Shown here: positions 1-20,000 of the stretch, in pieces
Layout of the letters: the number at the start of each line of letters is the position of its first letter
How positions within the stretch are numbered: the first letter of the stretch is position 1
Virus record (IMG/VR): IMGVR_UViG_3300037488_001694
Strand: one strand, 5' to 3'
Length of the DNA: 20,000 nt
Source of the DNA: an uncultured virus (IMG/VR IMGVR_UViG_3300037488_001694)
Taxonomy: Duplodnaviria > Heunggongvirae > Uroviricota > Caudoviricetes
Made by a program: the position numbers and the translations under genes
The notes under the pieces: generated by a model
What the model was told of the DNA's origin: nothing
Seen by the model: the letters and a program-made list of their open reading frames with translations, nothing else
Databases searched by the model: none

Positions 1-195
1 CGGAATTAATTTTAAAAGATCTTGTGATTGGTCTTTTATAAATTGTATATCCTCATCGTCTAATTTAAACTTTTTATCCTTTTTATACTCTTTCGCTGCC
101 GACATCAATATCTTAACCAACAACCTAGTTTCTTTCGCCTCACTAGTTGCTGCGTTTTTGTATTTTTTAAGTTCGTCAGTAATTTTACTCATCAT
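1..195 (-). CDS. Hypothetical helical protein, 3' end outside the window
   Basis: Not in the ORF track. Read manually, ATG ATG at 195/192 gives MMSKITDELKKYKNAATSEAKETRLLVKILMSAAKEYKKDKKFKLDDEDIQFIKDQSQDLLKLIP with no stop before base 1. It is preceded by GTATTTAT on the - strand and is divergent from the 246 gene. Confidence 0.8.
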   Translation of the reverse strand, partial: MMSKITDELKKYKNAATSEAKETRLLVKILMSAAKEYKKDKKFKLDDEDIQFIKDQSQDLLKLIP

Positions 196-209
196 AAGTA
201 TTTTTTACA

Positions 210-217
210 ATAAATAC
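210..217 (-). promoter_or_regulatory. GTATTTAT upstream motif (putative late promoter) for the leftward gene
   Basis: ATAAATAC on the + strand at 210-217, ending 14 nt before the ATG at 195. The same motif precedes the + strand genes. Confidence 0.6.
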
Positions 218-227
218 TTCGTTTGCT

Positions 228-235
228 GTATTTAT
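228..235 (+). promoter_or_regulatory. GTATTTAT upstream motif (putative late promoter)
   Basis: Ends 10 nt before the ATG at 246 and sits back-to-back with the - strand copy. Confidence 0.62.
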
Positions 236-245
236 TAAAAAAAAG

Positions 246-3089
246 ATGGCACAACAGAACATTAATCAATATGTGTATCCGAAACTAAAAATAAGTTTCG
301 CTTTAGATACTTCAGATATGTCCTTATCGTCTGATGAGGTGGATTACAACCAAGAGGTTGTGTTCTCACCATATCTTATTGCCCAAACATATGGAAATAG
401 ATTACCTGTTTACTATGACCTTAATAGTTCGAACACCACACAAAATTTAACACTTACATATGGTCAATATGATTTTAGAAATTTAGTTGTTTCTGAAAAT
501 TATTATAATCCCGATAATTTGGATTTAACTTGTTTTAGTGCTCAAAGTGCTTGTGATATAGGTTTAGTCGGAATGGACAATGGTTTGGTAACATCTTTAG
601 TCGGTCAAACAATTACATTTACTAATGGATTATTTAATCAAACGGAAAAATTCCAAAGAACATATTTTGATAGAAGAATGAAGATGTTCCAAGTTACGGG
701 ATATACTTCACAATATAATAGATTTTCAGGTATTCCAAAAAATACTTTATATGAAATTGAAAGTACTGTAGAACCTAACGTTGGTAAATACCATAAGTTA
801 TATGGTGGTTTTTACCAAGGTTTCTATAAATTATTTGGTTATGATTATGAAGCGTTACCGGAAAGAACCAATAAAGGTTGGTCGGTAGAGATGTTATTAA
901 AACCAAGAATTATAAATGATAGGATACCAGGATCAGGTGATACAACATTAAATGAAATTTATCCTGATAATAAAAATACATTCTTTTATTTAGGGACACG
1001 AGCTGAAAATAAATTTTATCACCACGCAGATGGTCATCCAAAATGTTTTACGGGTTATACAAGAGTAACATCAGGATTAACGGATTGTTTAGTTACTTGT
1101 GCTTGTTGTAATACAGGAGTAACAAATAGTAGATGTATTTTTGTTTACCCTCCAAGATCTGTTGATGGAATTCACGATTACCATGTTAATTATGGGTGTG
1201 ATGTTTGTAGGGAACAAAAACGTTATTGTGGTTGTGATTGCGGTGAGGAACCTTGTGGTACTTGTGGTTGGGAATGTAAAACTCACCCATGTGCATTAAT
1301 AACGGGGGTTACCCCAACGCCAATGCCAATTGTACCTCTAATATGTAAACCATGTGTACCAACCCCTACTCCAACTCCTACTCCATCACCAACACCTATT
1401 TATTGTGAAGTAGTACCTCCTTGTGAACACCCTTGTCCTGATTGTGAAACCTGTGACGAATGTGTTGATTGTATTACCTGTGCAACCACAGGATATACAT
1501 CAATAGAAGATACTTGTGAGAAAGATCCATTATGGGATTCATTGTCTAATGCGTTTTCCGTTAAATTTTCAGGAGACCCAAGAAACCCAAGAATATGTGT
1601 GAAAGCATTAAGATTTACCGGTGACTGTGTCACAACAGGAAGTTGTTCAACAACAGGAATAACTCAAATGACAGGTTATACGATTGATACGTATTGTTCT
1701 CCAAATGGAATATATGATTATTGTATTAATAAATGCGATACATTTTTTGATTTAGAAAAGTGGGCGTTAATTGATGTTGTATGGCGAAGATACACTTGGC
1801 TTGATACTTGTGATTTACAATGGAGGGGTGGGTTAGGTGATATAACGGAAGTAAAATATTTAGATTCGTTAGTAAACGATACAACTAAATTAATAAAACC
1901 ACCATATACTCACGAAAATTGTAGTATTGATCCTGAAACAATAGAATTAGTTAGGCTTAACCAAAAATGGTTAAATGATTTAGAATTTAGAATGGGTAGA
2001 TTAAAAATCTATGTTAATGGAAAACCATTCTTTACTATTGAGAATTTTGAAGAAATTATTCCAAGACCTTTGGATACCGATAAAGAAAGACAAATTGGAG
2101 TTCCGTTTAATATGTCTTGGGGTGGGGGAACACAAGGATTACGTGAGAATTTAATTTTCTCTTCTTGTACTTTACCTTATACAGATTATATCCAAGACCC
2201 GGAATTATTCCCTGAGAATGTTCTTAGTGGAACAACATTTGCAGGAATGAGAACAAATATTTTATTGGAACAAAATTTTGGTGGAACATTTGAGGGAGGT
2301 ATTTCTCAATTTAGAATGTATGTTGACCCATTGACGGCACCTGAAATAAAACATAACTTTAAAATATTAAAGGACAGATTTAGTATGTTTGATCCTGACT
2401 GCCCTGATTGTGATCCTGTGGTATGTGAGGTAAATGATTTTGAGTATGATGTTGTTGGAGAAACACCAACACCAACGCCAACTATAACATCAACCCCAAG
2501 ACCAACTCCAACACCAACACAAACATTATTACCATTAGATTGTGAAAATTGTAATACTCAAGCTGTTTTACCATTACCAGGAAATAATATTACGTATTCA
2601 AGTGGTATTAGTATTTCTGCCATTGGAACAGGAAGTGTTACACCATACACATTCCCAACGGGAACAGAAAACTATTGTGGATTTACTGGTTTACAAAATA
2701 CGGTTTGGTTGGGTCAATCAGGATCGTTTACATATACCTTAAACTTTAGTCAACCAATTAATAATTTTAATTTTACTTTACTTGGATATGAAATTACAGG
2801 AGGGAATCCAGAATCTTTTACTATAACAACAAACACAGGAAATAACACACCTGAAATTATTTTATGTTCAGGATGTTGTGCATCAATTTCGGGGAATGTT
2901 ATAACCGCAAGTAATATAAATAATGATTGTGATCCGATTTGTGGTAATGGTTGTGGAGCGGGACAATTCACGATAAACAACTCAGTATCTTTCACGTCTT
3001 TAACAATTGCAGGTAGTGGAGGTAATGCGGGATCCGTAATGTCAATTTGTGATTCCATACCATCGGTAACTCCGACACCAACGCAGTAA
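246..3089 (+). CDS. Large Cys-rich putative virion protein with LamG/ConA-like motifs and Pro/Thr linkers, probably frameshift-truncated
   Basis: 947-aa ORF. LamG-like motifs are GWSVEMLLKP, RLKIYVNGKP and FEGGISQFRMYVDPLTAPEIKHNF. It also has CxxC/CxC clusters, TPTPTP linkers and a C-terminal beta-rich domain. The fold call is by motif recognition only. Confidence 0.75.
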   Translation: MAQQNINQYVYPKLKISFALDTSDMSLSSDEVDYNQEVVFSPYLIAQTYGNRLPVYYDLNSSNTTQNLTLTYGQYDFRNLVVSENYYNPDNLDLTCFSAQSACDIGLVGMDNGLVTSLVGQTITFTNGLFNQTEKFQRTYFDRRMKMFQVTGYTSQYNRFSGIPKNTLYEIESTVEPNVGKYHKLYGGFYQGFYKLFGYDYEALPERTNKGWSVEMLLKPRIINDRIPGSGDTTLNEIYPDNKNTFFYLGTRAENKFYHHADGHPKCFTGYTRVTSGLTDCLVTCACCNTGVTNSRCIFVYPPRSVDGIHDYHVNYGCDVCREQKRYCGCDCGEEPCGTCGWECKTHPCALITGVTPTPMPIVPLICKPCVPTPTPTPTPSPTPIYCEVVPPCEHPCPDCETCDECVDCITCATTGYTSIEDTCEKDPLWDSLSNAFSVKFSGDPRNPRICVKALRFTGDCVTTGSCSTTGITQMTGYTIDTYCSPNGIYDYCINKCDTFFDLEKWALIDVVWRRYTWLDTCDLQWRGGLGDITEVKYLDSLVNDTTKLIKPPYTHENCSIDPETIELVRLNQKWLNDLEFRMGRLKIYVNGKPFFTIENFEEIIPRPLDTDKERQIGVPFNMSWGGGTQGLRENLIFSSCTLPYTDYIQDPELFPENVLSGTTFAGMRTNILLEQNFGGTFEGGISQFRMYVDPLTAPEIKHNFKILKDRFSMFDPDCPDCDPVVCEVNDFEYDVVGETPTPTPTITSTPRPTPTPTQTLLPLDCENCNTQAVLPLPGNNITYSSGISISAIGTGSVTPYTFPTGTENYCGFTGLQNTVWLGQSGSFTYTLNFSQPINNFNFTLLGYEITGGNPESFTITTNTGNNTPEIILCSGCCASISGNVITASNINNDCDPICGNGCGAGQFTINNSVSFTSLTIAGSGGNAGSVMSICDSIPSVTPTPTQ

Positions 3090-3241
3090 GGACAGATGTG
3101 AATGACCCAAGAAGTTTTGACATATATGTTGGGAATTATTTAAATAGTCCAACAAGTTTCCCAAGTTCAATTGCGGTTTTAATTTATCGTCAAGTAGGTA
3201 CAAACCCACCAATTATTTATGACCCGAATTATTTTGTATAA
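3084..3241 (+). pseudogene. Out-of-frame C-terminal continuation of the 246 gene (apparent 1-bp deletion near 3084)
   Basis: The -1 frame is stop-free from 3053 to TAA at 3239-3241. Inserting one C (acg ca gta to acg cca gta) gives ...TPTPTPVRTDVNDPRSFDIYVGNYLNSPTSFPSSIAVLIYRQVGTNPPIIYDPNYFV*. This fills an otherwise unusually long gap before the motif at 3256. Confidence 0.62.
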
Positions 3242-3255
3242 AATAATTTGGTATT

Positions 3256-3264
3256 GTATTTATA
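3256..3264 (+). promoter_or_regulatory. GTATTTATA upstream motif (putative late promoter)
   Basis: TATTTAT at 3257-3263 ends 12 nt before the ATG at 3276. Confidence 0.62.
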
Positions 3265-3275
3265 GGTAAACAAAG

Positions 3276-4784
3276 ATGAGTCAAACTATATTAATAGGGA
3301 GTATTAATTATAACGGTGAAATTGCAACCGTATTATTTAAACCAGATAATGCAAATGTTGTTATCAATTTAGGTAATGTTGTCTTGCCGTATTTATTTGA
3401 CCCATCTTTATTAAACCCACCAAGAGAAATTTATGGTACTTATACAATTTTAGTTTTAGGGGATGATGGAAATTGCAAGACAGATTGTCCAAACATACTA
3501 CAAGTACCAAGACCGACTCCAACGCCAACCCCAACACTAACACCAACAAGAACATTAACACCGACCCCAACTCCTACGATTACTCCAACCCCAACCTTTG
3601 ATCCTTGTAAGGTTCCAACACCTACACCAACAACAACATCAACACCAACGATTACACCTACCAATACTCCAACACCAAGTGCGACTTGTACAAATCCATG
3701 TGGTTGTCCTGAACCAAGTAGAACTCCAAGACCAACAAGAAGTCCAAAACCAACACCAAGTGCAACAAGTGGGTATTGTTATCCAACACCAACACCAACT
3801 CCAACTAATACACCAACCCCAACATCAACTTTAACGCCCACAGTTATACCAACAAACACAGTTACGCCAACGAATACGGTAACACCAACTAATACGACTA
3901 CACCAACTAATACGACTACACCTACGGTAACTGAAACCCCAACTAACACACCTACCCCTACAATAACTGAAACTCCAACTAATACGCCAACAAACACAAT
4001 CACACCAACAAATACCATCACATCAACCCCTACAACAACACCCACAGTAACTAATACACCAACTTTAACAACAACACCAACTAATACCCCAACATTAACA
4101 TCAACACCAAACTTGGTCATATCCGGATTAATTATACGATTAGATGCGTATGATGAGTTAAGTTATTCGGGTTCAGGAACGAACGTTCTTAACTTACAAA
4201 CACCAGGAACGTATGATCACACATTAACAGGTGCAGATTATGTAGTTCTTAATGGTATAAAATGTTTTGATTGTACGACAGGAACTGACAGAGTCGTTGT
4301 AAATGGTGATGGACCTACATTACCAACATCAGGTTATACATATATTACTTGGGCAAGATTGATATCCAGTACCGCAGCATTTAGAACATTACTTTATACA
4401 AATGGTTCTACTAAAATCACACCAATTACAATCCCTGATGGTACAAATACTTTAGGATATTGGGACACCGCATTTAGAAGTTCGGGATATGATTTATCAG
4501 GTCAAACTAGTGTTTGGGTTCAATATGCAGTTGTTGGAACAAATTCATCTCAAAAATTTTATATAAATGGTTCTGAAGTTGGAAGTGAAATTGCTTTTGG
4601 TTCAGGTGGAAACACACATTGGGGATGGGGTAATAATCAGGGACCAAGTCAACCATTTGGATATGTTGCCAATATGTATTTCTATAATAGACAATTATCA
4701 CTTTCTGAAATAACACAACAATATAACTTCTTGGCCCCAAGATTTATTGAAGTAACACCTACTCCTACACCAACAGGAATATAA
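3276..4784 (+). CDS. Putative virion protein with N-terminal domain, mucin-like Pro/Thr stalk and C-terminal LamG-like (ConA lectin/glucanase superfamily) domain
   Basis: 502 aa with about 200 aa of TPT/TPTNT repeats. The C-terminal domain has phage LamG-like hallmarks: [32 protein letters not shown] and [18 protein letters not shown]. Confidence 0.82.
3507..4109 (+). repeat. Pro/Thr low-complexity coding repeat (mucin-like stalk)
   Basis: Degenerate ACN-CCN repeats encoding PTPTPT, TPTNT and TETPTNT, interrupted by a few Cys (DPCK, CTNPCGC, YCY). Confidence 0.9.
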
Positions 4785-4803
4785 TTTATTTTTTTATTTC
4801 AAC

Positions 4804-4811
4804 TATTTATA
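4804..4811 (+). promoter_or_regulatory. TATTTATA upstream motif (putative late promoter)
   Basis: TATTTAT at 4804-4810 ends only 5 nt before the ATG at 4816. Confidence 0.58.
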
Positions 4812-4815
4812 GGAT

Positions 4816-5124
4816 ATGACACAAATACAAATAAATTCCATAACGGGATCAGCATATCCTTATACTCTTTACGCTTGTGATGTTTATGGTAATCAGTGTC
4901 TTTTAATTGCAACAATTCCATCCACAGCAACATTTCCTTTAATTATAACATTACCACCACAATTCAATGGTGCTCCCGCAGTTGGGTTGAAAATGATAGA
5001 TATTTTAGGTTGTGAATTATTTGGAGTTATCTATTGTCAAGGTGTTAATAAAGGTAAATTATTTGAGGATGGGGAGATATTCTTATTTATGGACGCAGAG
5101 ATTTACATTTTCCAAGACCAATAA
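4816..5124 (+). CDS. Small hypothetical protein, probably structural, with 4 Cys and an acidic/aromatic C-terminal tail
   Basis: 102-aa ORF with an upstream motif and tight packing between neighbours. The tail reads KLFEDGEIFLFMDAEIYIFQDQ. Confidence 0.8.
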   Translation: MTQIQINSITGSAYPYTLYACDVYGNQCLLIATIPSTATFPLIITLPPQFNGAPAVGLKMIDILGCELFGVIYCQGVNKGKLFEDGEIFLFMDAEIYIFQDQ

Positions 5125-5136
5125 TCATTTTTACAA

Positions 5137-5143
5137 TATTTAT
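5137..5143 (+). promoter_or_regulatory. TATTTAT upstream motif (putative late promoter)
   Basis: Ends 14 nt before the ATG at 5158 and is followed by an A-rich leader with no Shine-Dalgarno sequence. Confidence 0.6.
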
Positions 5144-5157
5144 TAATAAAAATAATA

Positions 5158-8100
5158 ATGGGATTTCAAAGACTTACGGATAGGACAATTGCCACAGGTG
5201 TATCACTTAATGATTTAATACATATCGTTATTACCGGCGACACGTCCCAAAATCCGGCAGGATCTTCATATAAAGCAACAATTGCACAAGTAGGTGCGGC
5301 AATCACAAGTGTTGGTACTTCAGGTACAGACGGTACTTCAGGTACAGATGGAACAAGCGGAATTAATGGAACTTCAGGGACAAACGGAACTTCAGGTACA
5401 AATGGATCTTCAGGTACAGATGGTACATCTGGAAGTAACGGAACAGATGGTACTTCCGGTACTAATGGGACTAACGGATCTTCGGGCACAAATGGAACCA
5501 ATGGATCTTCAGGAACAGATGGTACTAATGGGTCTTCAGGTACAGATGGTACTTCAGGAACAAACGGATCTTCAGGAACAAATGGCACTTCAGGTACAGA
5601 CGGCACTTCAGGAACGAATGGTACAGACGGCACATCAGGAACAAATGGAACTGATGGAAGTTCTGGAACAGATGGAACAAATGGAAGTTCGGGTACAGAT
5701 GGAACTAATGGAAGTTCAGGAACAGATGGTACTTCAGGATCTGATGGTACCTCAGGTACGGACGGAACTTCAGGTACGGACGGAACTTCAGGTACGGACG
5801 GTACAAGTGGAATATCAGGAGTAAACGGAACAAGCGGAACTAACGGAACAAATGGTTCTTCAGGAACAGATGGAACAAATGGTAGTTCGGGAACAGATGG
5901 TACTAGTGGTACAGATGGAACTAATGGAAGTTCGGGTACGGACGGTACTTCAGGAACGGACGGAACTAATGGGTCTTCAGGGACTGATGGTACGAACGGT
6001 ACTTCAGGTACTGATGGTACGAACGGTACTTCAGGTACTGATGGTACTAGCGGAACGGATGGAACTAATGGAAGTTCAGGTACGGATGGTACTAGCGGAA
6101 CAGATGGAACAAATGGTAGTTCAGGAACAGACGGAACAAATGGTTCAAGTGGGACGGATGGAACAAACGGATCAAGTGGTACAGATGGTACTTCAGGAAC
6201 AGACGGATCTAGCGGAACAAATGGTACTGACGGAACTAGCGGAACAAATGGTACTGACGGATCTAGTGGGACAAATGGTACGGATGGATCTAGTGGGACA
6301 AATGGTACGGATGGTTCTAGTGGGACAAATGGTACGGATGGAACAAGCGGTACAGATGGAACAAATGGATCAAGTGGGACTGATGGAACAAATGGATCTT
6401 CAGGTACTGATGGAACTAGTGGTACAGACGGAACTAATGGTTCAAGTGGTACGGATGGTACTTCAGGAACAGACGGAACTAATGGAACTTCAGGAACAGA
6501 TGGAACTAATGGGTCTTCAGGTACGGACGGAACAAATGGTTCAAGTGGAACCGATGGAACTTCAGGTACGGATGGAACTTCAGGTACGGATGGGACTAAT
6601 GGATCTTCAGGAACAGACGGTACGAGCGGAACCGATGGAACTAATGGTAGTTCAGGTACAGATGGTACTAATGGATCTAGCGGAACTGATGGAACTAATG
6701 GTTCAAGTGGAACTGATGGTACTAATGGATCTTCAGGTACAGATGGTACTAGTGGAACTGATGGTACAAACGGATCTTCAGGAACAGACGGTACGAGCGG
6801 AACCGATGGAACAAATGGTTCAAGTGGAACTGATGGTACAAACGGGTCATCAGGTACAGATGGAACCAGCGGTACAGACGGAACAAATGGTAGTTCAGGA
6901 ACAGACGGAACAAATGGTTCTTCAGGAACAAATGGTACTGATGGAACTAGCGGAACAGATGGAACTAGCGGAACCGATGGAACAAGTGGTACAGATGGTA
7001 CTAATGGATCTAGTGGCACTGATGGAACAAATGGCTCTTCAGGTACGGATGGTACTAGCGGAACAGATGGAACAAATGGAAGTTCGGGTACGGATGGAAC
7101 AAATGGAAGTTCAGGTACAGACGGAACTAGCGGAACAGATGGTACGAATGGGACTAGCGGTCTTTCAGGTGTAGATGGTACGGATGGTACTTCAGGTACT
7201 GACGGAACCTCAGGAACTGACGGAACAAATGGTTCTTCAGGTACTAATGGTACCGATGGGACTTCAGGAACAGACGGAACAAATGGTTCAAGTGGAACAG
7301 ATGGAACTTCAGGTACGGATGGTACTAATGGAACTAGCGGAACAGATGGAACAAATGGTAGTTCAGGTACAAATGGTACTAACGGAACGTCGGGAACTAA
7401 TGGTACGAATGGAACATCAGGTACGAATGGAACAAACGGAACTAGCGGAACGAATGGAACTTCAGGAACTAACGGTACAAATGGAACAAACGGGACTAGC
7501 GGAACGAATGGTACTTCAGGAACTAACGGTACTAATGGAACAAATGGTACCAACGGAACTTCAGGAACTAATGGAACAAATGGTACTTCAGGGACTAACG
7601 GAACCAATGGTACAAATGGTACTAACGGTACTTCGGGTACAAACGGAACGAATGGTACATCGGGAACGAATGGAACTTCAGGGACCAACGGTACAAATGG
7701 AACTTCAGGTACAAACGGAACTAGTGGAACGAACGGTACTAATGGGACATCAGGTACAAATGGTACTAATGGGACATCAGGAACTAACGGAACATCGGGA
7801 ACTAACGGTACGAATGGAACAAATGGTACAAGTGGTACAAGTGGAACTAACGGAACTAATGGTACGAATGGAACTAACGGTACATCAGGTACGAATGGAA
7901 CTAACGGTACATCAGGTACTAATGGAACAAACGGGACTAGCGGAACGAATGGAACAAATGGTACTAATGGTACTAATGGTACAAGTGGAACTAATGGGAC
8001 TAACGGTACAAATGGAACCAATGGAACTAGCGGAACTAATGGTACTAACGGAACTTCAGGAACTAACGGTACTAACGGAACAAATGGAACTTCAGGAACT

Positions 8101-11100
8101 AACGGTACGAATGGTACTAGCGGAACGAATGGAACATCAGGAACCAATGGTACAAATGGTACATCAGGAACCAACGGAACTAGCGGTACAAATGGAACTA
8201 ACGGAACTTCAGGTACGAACGGAACAAATGGTACTAGCGGAACTAATGGAACTAGCGGTACGAATGGAACTTCAGGTACTAACGGGACTAGCGGAACGAA
8301 TGGAACAAATGGTACGAATGGAACTAACGGAACAAGCGGGACCAATGGTACGAATGGAACTTCAGGAACAAATGGTACGAATGGAACTAGCGGAACTAAT
8401 GGAACGAACGGTACGAGCGGGACCAATGGAACTTCAGGAACAAATGGTACAAATGGTACAAACGGCACTAGTGGGACAAACGGAACTAGCGGTACTAACG
8501 GTACTAATGGTACTAATGGAACCAATGGTACATCAGGTACAAACGGAACAAATGGTTCAAGTGGTACCAACGGTACTAATGGGACGAATGGAACATCGGG
8601 TACGAACGGAACTAACGGTACTAATGGGACGAATGGAACATCGGGTACGAACGGAACAAATGGTACTAACGGTACTAATGGGACTTCAGGAACAAACGGA
8701 ACTAATGGTACGAACGGAACAAATGGTTCAAGTGGTACCAACGGTACGAATGGATCATCAGGAACTAATGGTACAAATGGAACATCAGGTACTAACGGAA
8801 CTAGTGGTACAAATGGAACCAATGGTACTTCAGGTACAAATGGTACCAATGGAACAAACGGAACATCGGGAACTAATGGAACTAACGGTACATCGGGTAC
8901 TAATGGAACCTCAGGGACCAATGGAACGAATGGAACGAATGGTACGAGCGGCACTAACGGTACTTCAGGAACAAACGGAACTAATGGAACTTCAGGAACA
9001 AATGGTACTAACGGTACGAATGGAACAGATGGAACTTCAGGAACTAATGGTACAAACGGAACTAATGGTACAAACGGTACTAGCGGAACAAATGGAACTA
9101 ATGGTACTTCAGGTACAAACGGAACAAACGGAACTAGCGGTACGAATGGTACTTCAGGTACTAATGGTACGAGCGGGACCAACGGAACTAATGGGACAAA
9201 CGGTACGAGCGGAACTAATGGAACAAATGGTTCAAGTGGTACTAACGGTACTTCTGGAACAAATGGAACTAGCGGTACTAATGGTACATCAGGCACGAAT
9301 GGTACAAATGGGACTAGCGGTACTAATGGAACCTCAGGTACAAATGGTACAAATGGTACATCAGGAACTAATGGAACAAACGGAACGTCAGGAACAAATG
9401 GAACCAACGGTACATCAGGAACAAACGGGACTAATGGAACCAACGGAACAAATGGAACTAGCGGTACCAATGGAACTAACGGTACTAATGGGACGAATGG
9501 AACATCAGGTACGAATGGTACTAATGGATCATCAGGAACTAACGGAACAAATGGAACTAGCGGTACGAATGGAACCAATGGAACTTCGGGTACTAACGGA
9601 ACTTCAGGTACCAACGGTACTAGCGGAACTAATGGTACTAATGGAACTAGCGGTACAAATGGTACTAACGGATCATCAGGTACTAACGGTACGAATGGAA
9701 CATCAGGTACGAACGGGACTTCAGGAACTAATGGTACTAACGGTACTAATGGAACAAACGGGACTTCAGGAACTAATGGTACTAATGGAACTAGCGGAAC
9801 GAATGGTACTAACGGTACATCAGGTACTAACGGAACTTCGGGTACTAACGGAACGAATGGTTCAAGTGGCACCAACGGTACAAATGGTACCTCAGGAACT
9901 AATGGAACGAACGGAACTTCAGGGACTAATGGAACTAGTGGTACGAACGGAACAAATGGTACTAACGGTACAAATGGAACTAGCGGAACGAATGGAACGA
10001 ATGGAACTTCAGGAACAAATGGTACGAGTGGGACCAATGGAACAAACGGAACATCTGGAACAAACGGTACGAATGGAACTAGCGGAACGAATGGTACTTC
10101 GGGAACAAACGGAACAAATGGTTCAAGTGGTACCAACGGTACTAATGGGACTAGTGGAACAAATGGAACAAATGGTACGAATGGTACTAGCGGAACAAAT
10201 GGAACAAACGGAACTTCAGGTACGAATGGTACTAGCGGAACTAATGGTACTAGCGGAACAAATGGTACAAATGGATCGTCAGGAACTAATGGAACAAACG
10301 GAACTAGCGGTACGAATGGTACTAGCGGTACGAATGGCACTAGCGGAACAAATGGAACTAGCGGTACGAATGGGACTAACGGAACAAATGGTACTAGCGG
10401 AACTAACGGAACTTCAGGAACCAACGGGACTAATGGAACATCGGGAACGAATGGAACCAACGGAACAAGTGGTACTAATGGAACTAACGGAACCAATGGC
10501 ACGAGCGGTACTAACGGAACCAATGGCACGAGCGGTACTAACGGAACTTCAGGAACTAATGGTACAAACGGTACAAATGGTACATCGGGAACTAACGGTA
10601 CAAATGGTACATCAGGTACGAATGGTACTAATGGAACTTCAGGCACAAACGGTACGTCAGGGACCAATGGAACAAATGGTACTAGCGGAACAAACGGAAC
10701 TAACGGAACATCCGGAACTAATGGAACTTCAGGTACTAATGGCACAAACGGTACGAATGGTACATCAGGAACTAATGGAACTAATGGTACTAGCGGAACA
10801 AATGGTACTTCAGGTACAAATGGAACAAACGGTACTTCAGGAACTAATGGAACATCTGGAACTAATGGAACGAACGGTACTAATGGAACTTCAGGTACTA
10901 ATGGTACAAATGGATCGTCAGGAACAAACGGAACAAATGGTTCAAGTGGTACCAACGGAACATCGGGTACAAACGGAACTAACGGTACTAATGGGACGAA
11001 TGGAACTTCAGGTACGAACGGAACAAATGGTTCAAGTGGTACCAACGGTACAAATGGAACTTCGGGTACGAACGGAACTAGCGGAACTAACGGAACGAAT

Positions 11101-14100
11101 GGTACTTCAGGTACTAACGGGACAAATGGAACAAACGGGACAAGCGGAACGAATGGTACGAATGGTACTTCAGGAACAAATGGAACTTCAGGAACAAATG
11201 GTACCAATGGAACTAGCGGAACGAATGGAACTAACGGGACATCAGGTACAAACGGAACAAATGGTACTTCGGGAACTAACGGAACGAGCGGAACAAATGG
11301 GACTAATGGAACGAGCGGAACAAATGGGACTAATGGAACTTCAGGAACAAATGGTACTAATGGAACATCGGGAACGAATGGAACTAGCGGAACGAATGGA
11401 ACTAACGGGACTTCAGGAACCAACGGTACAAATGGCACATCAGGAACCAACGGTACAAATGGCACATCAGGAACAAACGGTACTAATGGAACTTCAGGAA
11501 CAAATGGGACATCGGGAACAAATGGAACTAACGGTACCAATGGAACGAATGGGACATCAGGAACAAATGGAACTAACGGTACCAATGGAACAAATGGGAC
11601 ATCGGGGACTAACGGTACAAACGGGACTAGCGGAACGAATGGAACCAATGGTACTTCAGGAACTAACGGAACCAACGGAACCTCAGGGACAAACGGTACT
11701 TCAGGAACAAATGGTACTAACGGAACTAGCGGAACAAACGGAACATCAGGTACAAATGGAACTAGTGGTTTAGATGGTGCAACAGGAACTAGTGGTACAT
11801 CAGGAACTAATGGTACAAACGGAACATCAGGTACTAATGGAACAAACGGTACGAATGGGACAAGTGGAACCAACGGTACAAATGGAACAAGCGGAACCAA
11901 CGGTACAAATGGGACTAGCGGAACCAACGGTACTTCAGGAACAAATGGTACGAATGGATCGTCAGGAACAAATGGGACAAATGGAACTAGCGGAACCAAC
12001 GGAACATCTGGTACAAGAGGAACGTCAGGAACCAATGGTACGAATGGAACATCAGGAACAAATGGTACGAATGGTACTAGTGGAACAAACGGAACATCAG
12101 GGACTAACGGTACAAATGGTACTAGTGGAACAAACGGAACATCAGGGACTAACGGTACAAATGGTACTAGTGGAACAAACGGAACATCAGGGACTAACGG
12201 TACGAATGGAACATCGGGAACTAATGGTACGAATGGAACTAGCGGAACAAATGGTACTTCAGGCACAAATGGAACAAATGGTACGAACGGGACTAATGGA
12301 ACCTCAGGTACAAACGGAACAAACGGTACATCAGGAACCAACGGGACTAGCGGCACTAATGGTACAAATGGAACTTCAGGTACAAATGGTACGAGTGGAA
12401 CTAACGGCACTTCAGGTACTAATGGAACGAATGGAACCTCAGGTACTAACGGAACAAACGGAACATCGGGAACTAATGGTACTTCAGGAACAAATGGTAC
12501 AAACGGTACTTCAGGAACAAATGGTACAAGTGGAACAAACGGAACATCGGGAACTAATGGTACGAATGGGACTTCAGGGACTAACGGAACGAATGGGACT
12601 TCAGGTACGAATGGTACTTCAGGAACTAATGGTACTAGCGGTACAAACGGAACAAATGGTACTTCAGGAACAAACGGTACATCAGGAACTAATGGAACAA
12701 ATGGATCGTCAGGTACAAATGGTACTTCAGGAACAAACGGTACTAGCGGAACGAATGGTACAAATGGTACATCAGGTACAAACGGAACGAATGGTACTAG
12801 CGGAACTAATGGAACTTCAGGGACTAATGGAACTAATGGCACTTCAGGTACAAACGGTACGAATGGAACCAACGGAACATCAGGAACCAATGGAACGAAT
12901 GGTACGAGCGGTACTAATGGTACTTCAGGTACCAATGGAACTAGCGGAACGAATGGAACAAATGGTTCAAGTGGTACCAATGGTACTAATGGAACATCAG
13001 GAACCAACGGGACATCAGGTACAAACGGAACGAATGGTACTAGCGGAACTAATGGAACTTCAGGGACTAATGGAACAAATGGTTCAAGCGGTACCAACGG
13101 TACTAATGGAACATCAGGTACCAACGGTACGAATGGTACTAGTGGAACAAATGGAACCTCAGGTACAAACGGGACAAATGGAACTTCGGGAACTAATGGA
13201 ACTTCGGGAACTAATGGAACGAACGGGACTAGCGGAACAAATGGTACTTCAGGAACGAATGGAACAAATGGTACAAGTGGAACTAACGGGACATCAGGTA
13301 CAAATGGTACTTCGGGAACTAACGGTACGAATGGAACTAGCGGGACAAATGGAACTAATGGAACGAACGGGACTAGCGGTACGAATGGTACTAGCGGAAC
13401 AAATGGTACAAATGGTACTAGCGGAACGAATGGTACATCAGGAACAAGAGGAACTTCAGGAACTAACGGTACTAACGGAACATCAGGTACTAATGGAACG
13501 AATGGAACTAACGGTACATCAGGAACGAACGGTACAAATGGAACTTCAGGGACGAACGGTACAAATGGAACTAACGGAACATCAGGTACGAATGGAACTA
13601 ATGGTACTAACGGAACTTCGGGAACGAATGGAACAAATGGTACATCAGGGACTAACGGTACAAACGGGACTAGTGGAACGAATGGTACTAATGGAACTTC
13701 GGGTACTAACGGAACCTCAGGTACAAATGGTACTTCAGGTACTAACGGAACAAATGGAACTTCAGGAACTAATGGAACCAACGGAACTAGCGGAACAAAT
13801 GGTACTAGCGGAACTAATGGAACAAACGGTACTAGTGGAACAAATGGAACTTCAGGTACGAACGGTACGAATGGAACATCGGGAACAAATGGGACTAGCG
13901 GAACAAATGGAACTAACGGTACGAGCGGGACCAATGGAACAAACGGTACATCCGGTACGAATGGGACTTCAGGAACAAATGGAACTAATGGTACATCAGG
14001 TACGAATGGAACTTCAGGTACGAACGGAACTAATGGAACAAGTGGGACTAACGGTACTTCAGGAACAAGAGGAACATCAGGGACAAACGGAACAAATGGA

Positions 14101-17100
14101 ACTTCAGGAACTAATGGAACTTCAGGTACGAATGGAACATCAGGAACTAATGGGACATCAGGAACTAATGGGACAAATGGTACCAACGGAACAAATGGAA
14201 CGTCAGGGACAAACGGTACAAACGGAACCTCAGGTACGAATGGAACAAATGGAACTTCAGGTACGAACGGTACAAATGGAACAAACGGTACTTCAGGGAC
14301 TAACGGTACAAATGGAACAAACGGTACAAGCGGGACTAATGGAACAAACGGTACTTCAGGCACAAATGGAACTAGTGGAACGAACGGTACGAATGGAACG
14401 AACGGTACGAATGGAACATCCGGAACTAATGGAACATCAGGTACAAATGGTTCAAGTGGCACCAACGGTACAAATGGTTCAAGTGGGACGAACGGTACGA
14501 ATGGAACCTCAGGTACAAATGGTACTTCAGGAACTAATGGGACTAGCGGAACAAATGGAACTAACGGAACATCTGGTACAAATGGAACAAACGGTACATC
14601 GGGAACGAACGGAACAAATGGAACATCAGGTACAAATGGATCATCAGGAACTAATGGTACAAATGGAACTTCAGGTACAAATGGTACAAATGGGACTAGC
14701 GGAACGAATGGAACATCAGGAACCAATGGTACAAATGGGACATCAGGAACTAACGGAACGTCAGGTACTCGTGGAACTTCAGGAACTAACGGAACTAACG
14801 GAACATCAGGTACAAATGGTACAAATGGAACTTCGGGAACTAATGGTACAAACGGAACTAATGGAACATCAGGTACAAATGGAACAAGTGGTACTAATGG
14901 TACAAACGGAACTAGCGGTACGAATGGAACTAATGGAACATCAGGTACAAATGGAACAAGTGGTACTAATGGTACAAATGGCACTAGCGGAACAAATGGA
15001 ACAAATGGTACTTCAGGTACAAATGGAACTAGCGGAACCAACGGTACTAACGGAACAAATGGGACTTCAGGTACGAATGGAACAAATGGTACTAGCGGAA
15101 CTAATGGTACGAACGGAACCAACGGTACTAGCGGAACGAATGGAACTTCAGGTACAAACGGTACTAATGGAACTTCAGGAACAAATGGAACAAATGGTAC
15201 ATCAGGAACAAACGGAACTAGCGGTACGAATGGGACAAATGGTTCAAGTGGTACCAACGGAACTTCGGGAACCAATGGAACAAATGGTTCAAGTGGAACT
15301 AACGGATCATCAGGTACAAACGGTACGTCAGGAACTAATGGTACTAGCGGAACGAATGGAACTAATGGTACTTCAGGAACTAATGGTACTTCAGGAACTA
15401 ATGGTACAAATGGAACTAACGGTACGAATGGAACTTCAGGAACAAACGGTACGAATGGAACTAATGGCACATCGGGTACAAACGGAACCAATGGAACATC
15501 AGGAACAAATGGTACGAATGGTACTAGCGGAACGAATGGGACTTCAGGTACAAATGGAACAAACGGAACATCGGGAACTAATGGTACAAACGGAACTAGC
15601 GGAACGAATGGAACAAATGGTACCAACGGGACTTCTGGAACGAACGGAACGAATGGTACATCAGGTACGAATGGAACTTCAGGTACGAATGGAACAAATG
15701 GTACAAACGGAACTAGCGGAACGAATGGAACAAATGGAACTAGCGGAACGAATGGTACTAATGGAACATCAGGTACCAACGGAACTAGTGGGACAAATGG
15801 TACGAATGGAACGTCAGGGACAAATGGAACTTCAGGCACTAACGGAACAAATGGAACATCGGGAACTAACGGAACTTCAGGTACAAACGGAACAAATGGT
15901 ACTAGCGGAACAAATGGTACTAGCGGAACAAATGGTACTAGCGGAACAAATGGTACATCAGGTACTCGTGGAACTTCAGGTACAAATGGAACTAATGGAA
16001 CGAATGGTACATCAGGTACAAATGGAACTAATGGAACTAATGGAACGAATGGTACATCAGGAACTAACGGGACATCAGGTACGAACGGTACTAATGGTAC
16101 CAACGGAACATCAGGAACTAATGGTACCAACGGAACTAGCGGTACAAATGGTACATCAGGTACGAATGGAACGTCAGGAACAAACGGAACAGGAGGATCT
16201 TCAGGAACAAATGGAACTTCAGGTACAAATGGTACAAATGGTACAAATGGCACTTCAGGAACAAACGGAACTTCAGGAACAAATGGTACGAATGGTACTA
16301 ACGGAACTTCAGGAACAAACGGAACAAATGGTACAAATGGCACTTCAGGAACAAACGGAACTTCAGGAACAAATGGTACGAATGGTACTAACGGAACCTC
16401 AGGAACAAACGGTACTTCAGGAACAAATGGTACAAATGGTACTAACGGAACCTCAGGAACAAACGGAACAGGAGGATCTTCGGGAACAAACGGAACCTCA
16501 GGAACAAACGGAACAGGAGGATCTTCGGGAACAAACGGAACTTCAGGAACAAATGGAACAGGAGGATCTTCGGGAACAAACGGAACTTCAGGAACAAATG
16601 GTACATCCGGTGTTAGTGGAGCGTCAGGAACTTCAGGAACTAATGGTACAAACGGAACTAATGGGACTTCAGGAACAAATGGAACTTCGGGATCTAATGG
16701 TACAAACGGAACTAATGGGACTTCAGGTACGAACGGAACAAATGGTACCAATGGGACTAGCGGAACCAACGGAACAGGAGGATCTTCGGGAACAAATGGT
16801 ACATCTGGAACAAATGGAACTTCAGGTACGAACGGAACAGGAGGATCTTCGGGAACAAATGGAACTAGCGGTACGAATGGTACAAACGGAACTAATGGGA
16901 CTTCAGGTACGAACGGAACAAATGGTACCAATGGGACTAGCGGAACCAACGGAACAGGAGGATCTTCGGGAACAAATGGAACTTCAGGTACGAACGGAAC
17001 CAATGGTACAAATGGAACTTCAGGTACGAACGGAACCAATGGTACAAATGGAACTTCAGGTACGAACGGAACCAATGGTACAAATGGAACTTCAGGAACT

Positions 17101-17721
17101 AATGGTACAAGCGGAACCAACGGAACATCAGGAACAGGATTTAGTACGATATCTCCAACAACAGATAATAATATATTAACCGCAAATGGTACGGCAAATT
17201 CGGCAAACTCAGAACCTAACCTAACATTTAATGGAGCTTCCAATTTATTAACGGTAACGGGAAGTGCAACGATAACCGAACATTTACGAATCACTAGAAC
17301 TTCAGGTCTCTACACAATCAGCACAGACCCTATTTCAAGGTTAGTTAGTAATGGTGATTATTATGGTGAGACACTTGCTATTGGAGATGTTGGTACTCCA
17401 GCCGTTGGAAGTGTTTATTATTTTTCATCTTCAAGTACGTGGTTATTAACCGACGCAGATACCGCAGCACAATCAAGAAATTTAATTGCCATTTCCGTAG
17501 ATGCTATTGGATTTAATAGAGGTATGTTAATTAGAGGTTATTTTAAAAACACCGCTTGGTCATTTACAATTGGGTTCCCGGTATACTTATCTGTTAATCC
17601 AGGTGGACTATCTTCTACACAACCTACAGGATCTGGAGATATTGTTAGAGTTGTGGGTTATGCAATTGCTTCAGATGAAATTTATTTTAATCCTTCACAA
17701 GATTGGATTGAGTTAGTATAA
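5158..17721 (+). CDS. Giant collagen-like (Gly-X-Y) fibre protein, 4187 aa
   Basis: 52-aa non-repetitive N-terminus, 3939 aa of Gly-X-Y repeats and a C-terminal globular region of about 195 aa (..[43 protein letters not shown]). Synonymous third-position variation across the repeat shows this is the coding frame. Confidence 0.9.
12070..12203 (+). repeat. Exact 45-bp tandem repeat, about 3 copies
   Basis: The unit GGTACTAGTGGAACAAACGGAACATCAGGGACTAACGGTACAAAT starts at 12073, 12118 and 12163. The third copy differs only near its end. Confidence 0.88.
16696..16979 (+). repeat. Exact 104-bp direct repeat, 180-bp period
   Basis: 16696-16799 is identical to 16876-16979, including synonymous positions. 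Confidence 0.88.
16978..17085 (+). repeat. Exact 36-bp tandem repeat x3
   Basis: GGAACTTCAGGTACGAACGGAACCAATGGTACAAAT at 16978, 17014 and 17050. Confidence 0.9.
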
Positions 17722-17731
17722 TTTATTTAAT

Positions 17732-18448
17732 ATGCCAACAGTAAGTAAAGTTAATGACGTTTTATGTTTTAACATCAGTAAAGTAGATGATGTACTTAAA
17801 ACAAATGCAAGGAAAATGGACGATATTGACTTCTGCTCACCAACACCAACAATGACACCAAGTACATCACCAGGGGCAACACCATCAAATACACCAACCA
17901 TTACTCCAACAAGAACGGTTACACCAACAAGAACACCAACCATTACTCCAACAAGAACGGTTACACCAACAATTACTCCAACAACAACACCAACCATTAC
18001 ACCAACAAGAACACCGGCTAATACACCAGCCAACACACCATCTAATACTCCATCTAATACTCCATCTAACACACCAAGTAATACTCCATCTAACACACCA
18101 AGTAATACTCCAAGTAATACTCCAAGTATTACACCAACAAGTACACCAGCAGGTGGTACACCAACACCAACTCCAACACCAACTCCAACACCTTGTGTGG
18201 AAATTTGTTGTTTAAAAGAATTATGTTTTGATGAGAATGACCCCCCAATAGCTTGTCAGTGTAATGTTACAGTACAAGTTTATTTACACTTACCTTGTGG
18301 TGGTTCATGTGGTTTTAGCAATGCCGATGGTTTATTTGATGATGCCGATTGTAGAACTCCAGCACCACGAGGTTTTTACTCAGATGGTGTTGATGTTTAC
18401 TATTGGGATCCACCAACACTTTCATTATCCTACATCGGACCTTGTTAA
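17732..18448 (+). CDS. Putative virion protein with short N-terminal repeats, Pro/Thr stalk and Cys-rich C-terminal domain
   Basis: 238 aa. The N-terminus has three related motifs (VSKVNDV, ISKVDDV, ARKMDDI), followed by about 120 aa of TP repeats and a Cys-rich C-terminal domain containing APRGFYSDG. It starts 10 nt after the giant gene's stop. Confidence 0.82.
17837..18193 (+). repeat. Pro/Thr coding repeat with a TPSN tetrapeptide array and a 40-bp exact duplication
   Basis: 17891-17930 is identical to 17933-17972. Tandem 12-bp units encoding TPAN/TPSN lie at about 18012-18130. Confidence 0.88.
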
Positions 18449-18482: not shown

Positions 18483-20000
18483 TTATTTTCTGTTATCCAT
18501 ATAAACGATAATTTCATCGTACCATTCAATAAAGTGTTCATTCCATAGATCCCATTTAATATCAACACCATCTACTGAGAAAATTTGTATGTTATCAAAT
18601 TGGGGAAAGATATTATCTCTAAACCATCTGAACTTACACTTATGAAAATTACTATCGTTTCTCATATGAAACTCCGTAACAATTTTTGGAATAGTTTTAA
18701 GGAATTCAATATTACTTTGTTGGAATACGTCATATTCACCACCTTCACAATCACACTTTAAAAAATCAATGTGTTTAATGTTATTTTCGTCTAAGAATTC
18801 TTTGAATGTAAAGGTTGGAACACTTTCAGTTATGTGATCCCAACTGATCTCAATTTTCTTTTTATCTGTGATTGCTCCTTGAATAATTTTAACATTGTCT
18901 CTTCCAACATTTTTATGAAGGACATCAATCTGATATGACAATGGTTCAACAACATAACATTGTTTTGGATTCTTCGGTAGAATTTTATACGTAAATGGTC
19001 CCAATGATGCTCCCAAATCTACAACAATATCACCTTCTTCAACTTCAAAGAATCTCTCATATGTGTTATCATCAAATATTTCTTTGATTGCAGCGTCTAC
19101 GTACCAATCACTTTTTTTGCCCCAATCAAATGAGATTTCATCAATTTTTTCTTCCATTACTTCTTTGTTAATTATTTTATTTATTTCTTTTATTACCATA
19201 TCGGAACTTATTCTTTTTGTACATTCAAACATCCGATCGGTATTTTTATGTAATGGACACCAGTTCCAATCACCAGCATCTAATCTTTCCGAATTAAAAC
19301 ATCCGTGACAAACACTTTCGTTAATAACTCTATATGTGTCTAAAGTTGTTTCGGCCCATTTTTCACTAAACCCTGAGATTAAAACTAACGGTAATTCACA
19401 AGCCCAAGCCAACCAAGACAACCCTGATCCTAAACCAATGAAAAATTCACAAGTACTTAAATCATTAATGACTTCTTGTAGGTTACCACCTTCAAATATT
19501 GTTACACCTTTAGGGTAATTGTTATTCATATATCCATCACCTTCTTTAGAATAGATCATACATTCATAACCTAACGATGTTAGATAATCAACAACTTTTT
19601 GCCAACCATCGGGGTTATTCCAATATTTTGATTGTGCTGTTGAGTGGAATCCAATACCAACCTTTTTCTTTTTTGACACATTTGGTAATTTAAGTTTTGG
19701 TCTAATCTCGGTATGTTCAAGACCTAAGATATCCGTTGCGGTTTTTTGTAATGGTTGTTTTTTGTAATCGCTAGGTGCCATATCATAATCAACCGAACCG
19801 TCTTCTTTATAGAACCAACCCAATCTGTATTGTGCGTGGATATTCATAACAACATCACCTGGTTCAACAAACTGAATATCAGGATATTGATCTGAAAATA
19901 AGTAATTCATAAATGTTGATACAATTAATTCACATTTGTGTTTCAACCTAAATTCCTCAACGTAAGGAACCCAAGCCATTGTATCCCCTAACGACTTTGA
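18483..20000 (-). CDS. Aah/TibC-like (BAHT) autotransporter O-heptosyltransferase domain fused to a C-terminal FkbM-family methyltransferase, 5' end outside the window
   Basis: The frame is open to base 20000 (SKSLGDT-MAWVPYVEEF), so ATG 19979 is internal. BAHT-like motifs are LGDxxAWxPY, STAQSKYWNNPDGW, FFIGLGSGLSWLAWA, LISGFS and the 4-Cys iron-finger-like VCHGCFN..WNWCPLHKNTDRMFECTKRI. FkbM-like motifs are GDIVVDLGASLG, VVEP and IDFLKCDCEGGE. Confidence 0.85.
   Translation of the reverse strand, partial: SKSLGDTMAWVPYVEEFRLKHKCELIVSTFMNYLFSDQYPDIQFVEPGDVVMNIHAQYRLGWFYKEDGSVDYDMAPSDYKKQPLQKTATDILGLEHTEIRPKLKLPNVSKKKKVGIGFHSTAQSKYWNNPDGWQKVVDYLTSLGYECMIYSKEGDGYMNNNYPKGVTIFEGGNLQEVINDLSTCEFFIGLGSGLSWLAWACELPLVLISGFSEKWAETTLDTYRVINESVCHGCFNSERLDAGDWNWCPLHKNTDRMFECTKRISSDMVIKEINKIINKEVMEEKIDEISFDWGKKSDWYVDAAIKEIFDDNTYERFFEVEEGDIVVDLGASLGPFTYKILPKNPKQCYVVEPLSYQIDVLHKNVGRDNVKIIQGAITDKKKIEISWDHITESVPTFTFKEFLDENNIKHIDFLKCDCEGGEYDVFQQSNIEFLKTIPKIVTEFHMRNDSNFHKCKFRWFRDNIFPQFDNIQIFSVDGVDIKWDLWNEHFIEWYDEIIVYMDNRK

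Follow-up and report, generated by a model that had tools for sequence, protein, structure and literature searches.

A proline-free Gly-X-Y array of 1,314 triplets in an uncultured phage: a candidate collagen-type fibre of micrometre length

What structure does a protein adopt when it repeats Gly-X-Y for 3,942 residues without a single proline? The question is raised by one gene in a stretch of 20,000 nucleotides of DNA (hereafter the window) from an uncultured virus assigned to the Caudoviricetes (IMG/VR record IMGVR_UViG_3300037488_001694). The gene lies on the plus strand at positions 5158..17721 and encodes a giant fibre protein of 4,187 amino acids (aa), with a mass of ~370 kDa and a pI of ~4.05. 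We interpret the product as a virion fibre built of an anchor, a spacer and a tip, of trimeric collagen type, probably O-glycosylated and ~1.1 micrometres long, and we assign this reading as a whole a probability of roughly one half (0.52).

The reading frame of the fibre gene is fixed by homology at both termini and by the wobble pattern of its codons. Between residues 53 and 3994 (nucleotides 5314-17139), the frame encodes 1,314 consecutive Gly-X-Y triplets. An earlier reading made from the sequence only had reported 1313 triplets, 3939 aa and an end at position 17130; the run is indeed unbroken and proline-free, but our count gives 1,314 triplets, 3,942 aa and an end at 17139. The same reading had described X as nearly always Thr and Y as Asn, Ser or Asp, in an array with five Arg and neither Pro nor Lys, and the residue counts agree. 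Position X is taken by Thr in 1,231 triplets and by Ser in 74, with seven others, and position Y by Asn (749), Ser (470), Asp (81), Gly (8), Arg (5) and Thr (1). Pro, Lys and Glu do not occur in the array, and Gly accounts for 33.5% of its residues. With Pro, Lys and Glu at zero, five Arg and 81 Asp, the usual stabilizers of prokaryotic collagens, Pro and charge pairs, are largely absent, again in line with the sequence-only reading. The commonest triplets are GTN (745), GTS (395), GTD (78) and GSS (71). Having no Lys and five Arg, the array is nearly invisible to trypsin.

Charged residues make up 2% of the array and are found almost exclusively in its first quarter. Block composition delimits a proximal Asp-rich zone (5314..7383, plus strand, approximately triplets 1-230): GTD occurs 30 and 37 times per 100 triplets in the first two blocks and 10 times in the third, and is nearly absent from there on. 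The uncharged zone that follows (7384..17139, plus strand), defined by block composition and triplet counts, obeys the grammar (GTN)1-4-GTS and contains five GTR triplets. Past triplet 620, GTN occurs in runs of one (100 times), two (104 times), three (29 times) or four (8 times), and GTS or GSS stands singly in 247 of the 248 runs counted. The regularity of the array is far beyond chance; its strict period is three residues only, and the spacing of GTS is irregular. The rise per residue of collagen has a textbook value of 0.286 nm, and computed at this value the contour of the array is 1,127 nm.

The array is a selected coding pattern that bears the signature of purifying selection on the protein: variation is confined to wobble positions. 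The entropy of the Gly codons is 0 at positions 1 and 2 and 1.43 bits at position 3, and that of the Thr codons is 0.32 and 0.13 bits at positions 1 and 2 versus 1.74 bits at position 3. In nucleotide sequence, the array is an old repeat whose units have diverged: no exact repeat within it is longer than 104 nucleotides, 90% of its 31-mers and all of its 150-mers are unique, and in a sliding scan no 200-nucleotide window was more than 87% identical to another in-frame window. Since there are no near-identical copies, an assembler has nothing to loop through or expand. Assembly expansion, which the sequence-only reading had raised as a worry, is largely answered by this divergence, but not by a bridging unitig: among the short public unitigs aligned to the gene, no read or contig bridges the array, and the same unitigs contain many related repeats of other organisms, with more than 1,300 joints elsewhere. 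Part of the array 31-mers was found in 20 public runs from 12 studies, mostly of lake water, and exact interior pieces occur in unitigs of two runs from different studies (9256-9480, 11689-12072 and 13386-13608 in run X2; 10518-10785 in run X1). We regard the total length of the array as plausible.

Some smaller features of the array deserve mention. The 104-nucleotide repeat (at 16696 and 16876) is the only long one and lies near the tip, and the last ~120 triplets (~16060-17139) contain eight GTG triplets, each of them followed by GSS. This zone next to the tip may be more flexible or recently duplicated. The array (5314-17139) also contains 752 Asn-Gly dipeptides. Asn-Gly is the most deamidation-prone sequence known, and if the chain is flexible fast deamidation would be expected, so that the fibre would carry a chemical clock of its own. 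A minus-strand open reading frame (ORF) at 5166-17294 is free of stops over 4,042 aa and rich in Pro and Val, and the +2 frame of 5314-17139 has three stops only. Such long out-of-frame ORFs are shadows that arise from the limited set of codons in the array and can mislead gene-calling programs; fibre genes of this kind also seem to escape gene callers and protein databases.

The first 52 residues of the protein form an N-terminal anchor module (5158..5313, plus strand), relatives of which are present in 196 viral contigs; 80 loci out of these contigs were kept for counting. Across the 80 loci, the proteins that begin with the anchor have lengths from 181 to more than 3,345 aa and many unrelated C-termini, and in 4 of 5 contigs checked the anchor is carried by one or two genes. 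At least five Gly-X-Y triplets are present in 38 of the loci, and at least 100 in 26 of these, all with at most 0.3% Pro; the other 42 have the same anchor and no triplets. Complete relatives reach 988 triplets (926 unbroken), unbroken stretches in relatives range from 346 to 926, and the spacer slot behind the anchor in relatives holds 0 to ~1,000 proline-free triplets. One relative, a fibre of 2,553-2,556 aa with 783 or 784 unbroken triplets, recurs in ten contigs (L096, L100, L102, L104-L106, L108-L110 and L112), which shows that arrays assemble reproducibly and that the phage carrying this fibre is widespread.

Where the arrays of 14 members are broken, this is by whole globular inserts of 37-177 aa only, the exception being two one-residue slips in one protein. 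Interruption by whole domains only argues for a strict three-residue structural constraint. One related gene is syntenic with that in the window (L037, 6243-17414, on the IMG/VR contig behind L002) and encodes 3,723 aa, with an anchor that is 98% identical and two arrays of 409 and 695 triplets. A globular domain of 165 aa sits between these two arrays like a bead on a string.

Directly upstream of the fibre gene lies a gene (4816..5124, plus strand) for a conserved partner, a 102-aa protein with four Cys that are invariant (C21, C28, C66 and C74) in 24 aligned sequences. In 76 of the 80 anchor loci, its homologue ends 35-45 nucleotides before the start codon of the anchor. Searches of PHROGs, Pfam and the PDB gave no match for it, and in the Atlas it falls into unnamed virus-derived clusters only. 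The 102-aa protein is a candidate docking protein or assembly factor. Probably, one virion slot, formed with this protein, takes fibres with spacers of anything from 0 to 1,314 triplets.

The array ends in a beta-rich C-terminal domain of 193 aa (17140..17718, plus strand), for which an AlphaFold2 (AF2) model has a mean confidence score (pLDDT) of 85.9. Its sequence shares 42% identity with the C-terminal end of a protein of Flavobacterium phage immuto that the depositor annotated as a tail fiber protein (MW353176.1). Its family comprises 7,445 proteins at E<=1e-3 (2,072 at E<=1e-10) and 32 viral loci. In all members whose sequences were read the domain is located C-terminally, a few having extra internal copies. 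Gly-X-Y runs of at least six triplets were found in 6 of the 149 best representatives: one run contains proline, one is charged and four are proline-free and rich in Ser and Thr. The proline-containing run (P0005) meets the same C-terminal domain at exactly the same junction.

A Foldseek search of the model against the PDB gave nothing below E 1e-3. In a wide structural search the best matches were capsid decoration or cement proteins, from HFTV1 (Z 8.8), cyanophage Pam3 (Z 8.7) and Mycobacterium phage Adjutor (Z 8.6), values that are middling and in a range which the search tool describes as common for unrelated models. We take these decoration and cement proteins to act as trimers. In BFVD, 44 matches at E<=1e-3 were found, and most of the named ones are tail-fibre-like. 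The C-terminal domain is probably the nucleus of trimerization and chain registration as well as the distal tip of the fibre. The resemblance to decoration proteins also hints at a common origin of fibre tips and capsid decoration proteins. We considered an intramolecular chaperone of the peptidase S74 type as well, and rejected it as there is no Pfam match; leads of this type were the C-terminus of phi29 gp12 (Z 6.2) and a few BFVD rows so named.

Convergent with the fibre gene, and 762 nucleotides from its stop codon, the minus strand carries a gene (18483..20000) for a TibC/Aah-type protein O-glycosyltransferase fused to an FkbM methyltransferase. Its 5'-open frame continues to the window edge, where it is cut off, and the N-terminal part of the protein is missing. 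The first 269 residues of the ORF match TIGR04414, the equivalog family of bacterial autotransporter O-heptosyltransferases (BAHT) such as TibC and Aah (E 7.2e-72; 242.4 bits, with a cut-off of 200), the remainder is an FkbM-family methyltransferase (TIGR01444), and the TibC structures 4rb4 and 4rap are matched at E 1e-55. Full-length relatives of the enzyme have 758-1,219 aa and TIGR04414 scores of 268-289 bits. Three of the four that were scanned add a GT1/GT4 domain, and one of them also a GT2 domain; in the 758-aa relative (L007), the TibC-type domain was the only one seen, with no FkbM or GT1/GT4.

We read the functional residues by hand from HMMER alignments, with roles taken from the TibC paper (PMC4358343). 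In TibC, Asp-110 is the catalytic base, Cys-339, Cys-342, Cys-358 and Cys-370 form an iron finger, Thr-226, Lys-230, Arg-286 and Trp-305 bind ADP-heptose, and Pro-300 is responsible for stereoselectivity (PMC4358343). The phage enzyme shares with TibC and Aah the catalytic Asp, three of the four sugar-binding residues (the equivalents of Thr-226, Lys-230 and Trp-305) and all four Cys of the iron finger. The equivalent of Asp-110 is located in the 5'-open extension of the ORF in the window.

The enzyme is linked to arrays beyond the window. All 7 Gly-X-Y loci found via the C-terminal domain have a homologue of the enzyme at most 7 kb downstream, and it is absent from 25 array-free loci with this domain, which belong to more distant phages. 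The 80 anchor loci end 10 kb past the start of the gene, before the expected position of the enzyme, and co-occurrence was scored on contigs. Among ten related contigs searched, TIGR04414 scored over the cut-off in five of seven with arrays, the two misses being fragments cut inside the fibre gene, and in none of three array-free contigs, where there was one sub-threshold match. In the window and in three relatives (G006, G011 and G013), the enzyme gene is convergent with the array gene at a distance of 0.4-2.5 kb. The most telling case is G013 (274 kb, 93% complete), in which the array is part of a 3,395-aa open frame at 26092-34212, apart from the anchor-slot gene (106671), and the TibC-type gene (36732-37763) is found 2.5 kb from the array, again convergent.

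The contig behind L002, which carries the syntenic 3,723-aa gene, also encodes (L118, 2228-14621) two nucleotide-sugar epimerases, two aminotransferases and five glycosyltransferase-type ORFs, and this cluster of sugar genes adjoins genes for PhoH and dUTPase. We also considered N-glycosylation. Sequons of the type Asn-X-Ser/Thr take in 751 of the 765 Asn of the array. A phage enzyme of the GT41 family (HMW1C/OGT-type) was found in none of five related contigs, one of them 93% complete; this weakens the idea of GT41-type modification of the 751 sequons by the phage. A host enzyme may still act on them.

Three 300-aa pieces of the array match the Pfam family Collagen (PF01391; IPR008160) with E-values of 2e-47, 4e-47 and 3e-40 and scores of 159.2, 158.2 and 136.3 bits (cut-off 27.2), scores that are driven largely by the Gly period. 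Over thousands of triplets in many lineages, Gly is strictly kept while the synonymous sites and position Y vary freely, a pattern that points to a structure dependent on a Gly every three residues along its whole length. We favour a collagen-type helix of three chains because of this strict retention of Gly, and because a proline-containing collagen run occupies the same slot in a relative. Bacterial and viral collagens are stabilized by imino acids or by charge pairs (PMC11923368, PMC13138384), and unglycosylated (Gly-Pro-Thr)10 is a random coil that galactosylation turns into a helix (PMC11923368). Since the array has neither of the known stabilizers, and in view of the behaviour of (Gly-Pro-Thr)10, we prefer a triple helix assisted by glycosylation and rate its chances as about even or marginally better. 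The collagen-type repeat proposed by the sequence-only reading is borne out by the Pfam scores, and its suggestion of a helix stabilized by modification gains support from the TIGR04414/FkbM enzyme 0.76 kb downstream, glycosylation of the array being what we infer from that neighbour.

We hypothesize that the 52-aa N-terminus docks the fibre in one conserved slot on the virion, with the 102-aa four-Cys protein as a probable partner, and that the C-terminal domain gathers three chains in register and probably binds the host surface. From this C-terminal nucleus, the 1,314 triplets would zip towards the N-terminus into a collagen-type triple helix. The shaft would be held by hydrogen bonds of side chains and water, with Thr in X and Asn or Ser in Y, and also by O-linked, possibly methylated, sugars, which the adjacent TibC-type/FkbM enzyme would add in the cytoplasm of the host. 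The fibre may serve as a long, flexible and protease-poor tether, which would widen the radius within which the phage makes captures or let it cross a thick envelope of the host, and its length could be tuned freely through gain and loss of triplets. Collagens have persistence lengths of tens of nanometres, so that a thread of 1.1 micrometres would be flexible, with a mean reach of a few hundred nanometres, and not a rigid micrometre rod.

Several observations weigh against this reading. The array lacks the sequence stabilizers of characterized collagens, imino acids and/or Lys-Gly-Glu/Asp-type charge pairs, and in host-guest studies neither Thr in X nor Asn or Ser in Y is favourable; the coil formed by unglycosylated Gly-Pro-Thr belongs with these points. 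Arg-286 is replaced by Val and Pro-300 by Gly, both in the enzyme of the window and in that of the related locus L002, and the donor sugar may therefore not be ADP-heptose. TibC glycosylates Ser, not Thr, in its natural substrate (PMC4358343), and Thr is the main hydroxyl residue of the array. The association of enzyme and array comes from few, phylogenetically related contigs and is suggestive. The Thr/Pro(/Asn)-rich linkers of three neighbouring proteins (947, 502 and 238 aa; described below) offer possible alternative substrates for the glycosyltransferase. The fold matches of the C-terminal domain are middling and to capsid, not tail, proteins, and the length of the array is unbridged. Finally, a search of 5.8 billion protein clusters for proteins of 2,302-7,328 aa that share the C- or the N-terminus found none, an absence that is no evidence that the protein stands alone.

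The main rival to the triple helix is a mucin-like tether, a disordered and heavily O-glycosylated bottle-brush of single chains, or of three chains joined at the C-terminal domain, which would act as a flexible leash or as an entropic anti-fouling coat. It would account for an array without proline or charge pairs, for the glycosyltransferase next door and the sugar genes in a relative, for neighbours with Thr/Pro linkers, a type of linker commonly regarded as disordered and glycosylated, and for the coils formed by unglycosylated Gly-Pro-Thr peptides (PMC11923368). However, disorder needs no exact period, and Gly is kept through 1,314 triplets here and 346-926 in relatives, even though synonymous sites are saturated with changes and Y varies freely. 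Together with the proline-containing collagen-type run in the same slot of a relative, this makes the tether unlikely, though by no means negligible. The least probable of the readings that we considered is the one that the sequence-only reading had placed beside the modified helix, a bundle of polyglycine-II helices as in the snow flea, or some fold other than collagen, for example a beta-solenoid, with ice binding as a possible function. A three-residue Gly period does suit polyproline-II or polyglycine-II geometry, some insect antifreeze proteins have comparable Thr-rich repeats, and the habitat is lake water. Snow-flea bundles, however, are built of short antiparallel helices linked by turns and are very rich in Gly and small side chains, whereas the array runs for 3,942 residues without turn-like breaks, has Gly at one residue in three only and places bulky Thr in X. 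The irregular spacing of GTS, with one to four GTN in between, leaves a period of three and no constant coil length above it, and the proline-containing Gly-X-Y run at the same junction in a relative likewise speaks against the bundle. A parallel version with three chains and one Gly stripe per chain would in effect be a collagen-type helix, and an untwisted triple helix has been described (PMC11463431).

Other alternatives concern the orientation and the length of the fibre. It could be a head fibre that points the opposite way, with the C-terminal domain on three-fold sites of the capsid and the N-terminus free. The best folds, those of the HFTV1, Pam3 and Adjutor proteins, would agree with this, as would the capsid-binding base of the phi29 head fibre (Z 4.8), but all these values lie in the range common among unrelated models. 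Moreover, the N-terminus is constant across the 196 contigs and the C-termini are variable, a pattern of attachment end versus host-binding end; the named relatives of the C-terminal domain are mostly tail-fibre-like; and the gene lies among genes for lectin-domain proteins and, in a relative, ~36 kb from the head genes. We consider a head fibre improbable. The length could also be an assembly artefact, the gene being real and its true array much shorter or longer than 1,314 triplets. This would be compatible with an array that no aligned contig or read bridges, with its >1,300 joints to related repeats, and with contigs of several relatives that stop inside their arrays. It is difficult to reconcile with the diverged repeats of the array, with the 783 or 784 triplets obtained for one relative across ten contigs, and with the syntenic 3,723-aa gene in IMG/VR, and we regard an artefact as very improbable.

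Collagen-like phage shafts are already known, and so is the glycosylation of Thr as a stabilizer of collagen. 'Bacteriophage collagen' was the subject of Smith et al. 1998 (as cited in PMC1079782); orf028 of P-SSM2 consists to 49% of Gly-X-Y with Pro, Ser or Thr (PMC1079782); structural operons of aquatic pelagimyophages pair collagen repeats with concanavalin-A domains (PMC7029224); and EPclA from E. coli O157 prophages has ~22% charged residues (PMC11923368). The fibre described here resembles these tail fibres of phages and prophages in that a Gly-X-Y shaft, taken as trimeric, is part of a fibre gene. Their shafts, however, have tens to a few hundred residues and contain Pro and/or charge, compared with 3,942 residues, no Pro and 2% charged residues here. 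A 2022 review puts phage collagens at ~18 residues (PMC8968730). Bacterial collagen-like chains reach 6,000 aa (PMC11923368), and we therefore claim no record of chain length. In a 2025 'folding code' paper, Lys-Gly-Glu/Asp clamps are presented as a solution shared across life and viruses (PMC11923368).

BclA of the Bacillus exosporium and the cuticle collagen of Riftia are likewise Thr-rich collagens whose stability is ascribed to O-glycosylated Thr. They differ in having Thr in Y beside Pro (GPT) and enzymes unrelated to TibC, whereas here Thr is in X and Pro is absent, and the array is many times longer than that of BclA. At its C-terminus, BclA also has a globular domain that is trimeric. 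The array is matched or exceeded in length by the cuticle collagens of annelids, which are animal proteins with imino acids. The pairs TibC-TibA and Aah-AIDA-I share with the window the placement of an enzyme gene beside a very long, repetitive gene for a Ser/Thr-rich surface fibre. The substrate of TibC and Aah is a beta-helical autotransporter modified on Ser only, in contrast to the candidate substrate here, a Gly-X-Y array with mostly Thr. Val and Gly in place of Arg-286 and Pro-300, the FkbM fusion and the GT1/GT4 domains of relatives also set the phage enzyme apart from both. T4 fibritin (wac) with its foldon provides an analogy only, in its N-terminal anchor, long trimeric shaft and small C-terminal registering domain (in part from PMC13138384); fibritin has a coiled-coil shaft of ~50 nm, and its sequence showed no relation to that of the fibre here.

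Literature searches, which covered articles and not their supplements, returned no description of such proline-free phage fibres of micrometre scale. What is different here is the combination of no Pro, near-zero charge, Thr in X, micrometre scale, a slot of variable length and a TibC-type enzyme. We speculate, tentatively and with less confidence than in the fibre reading as a whole, that a triple helix of more than 1 micrometre is formed without proline, hydroxyproline or salt bridges, by a polar zipper and/or TibC-type O-glycosylation, with a decoration-like C-terminal trimer and one slot for 0-1,314 triplets. If true, collagens would have a third way of being stabilized, and the fibre would be a natural nanofibre whose length is genetically programmable. 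Having none of the imino acids, hydroxylation or charge pairs, the array is a direct and cheap test case for the rules of collagen stability: either it folds, which would point to new stabilizing chemistry with glycosylation as the obvious candidate, or the Gly periodicity serves a purpose outside the triple helix. With 0 to 1,314 triplets in one slot across relatives, the reach of the fibre appears to be a trait that can be tuned in dilute lake water. Collagen-like rods that are free of hydroxylation, protease-poor (the array has no Lys and five Arg) and of programmable length would also be of interest as materials.

The best explanation for the origin of the fibre is an uncultured T4-like freshwater phage with a genome of ~250-380 kb, the size reckoned for relatives from CheckV completeness; the hosts of such phages are perhaps Bacteroidota or cyanobacteria. 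A capsid protein of the T4 Gp23 family is encoded in 4 of 5 related contigs; with the tail-fibre homology, this bears out the phage structural context that the sequence-only reading had assumed for its potential fibre. A blastn search with the flank 1-5300 against cultured phages gave no match, a search for tRNA genes found none, and the late-promoter motif of T4 was not enriched (3 matches, 1.66 expected). Among the papers listed by a search on Flavobacterium phage immuto, none with virion proteomics was found.

The neighbours of the fibre gene also have features of a fibre module. The upstream gene at 246..3089 (plus strand) encodes a Cys-rich protein of 947 aa of the structural module with Thr/Pro linkers. 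It has no Pfam family, a weak match to the PHROG 'virion structural protein' (E 0.002), and in the ESM Atlas a lead only, to Laminin_G_3 clusters (score 0.85). In 20 of the 80 loci, counterparts of its N-terminal and middle portions are encoded upstream of the anchor gene. Next to it, at 3276..4784 (plus strand), a 502-aa protein is encoded that combines a short N-terminal domain, a Thr/Pro linker of ~230 aa and a C-terminal concanavalin-A-like lectin domain (Laminin_G_3, PF13385, E 1.2e-10); its homologue in a related contig is 81-83% identical. Between the fibre and enzyme genes, at 17732..18448 (plus strand), lies the gene for a 238-aa protein with a Thr/Pro/Asn-rich linker and a Cys-rich C-terminal part, homologues of which are encoded directly downstream of the fibre gene in five further loci (L002, L003, L004, L005 and L006).

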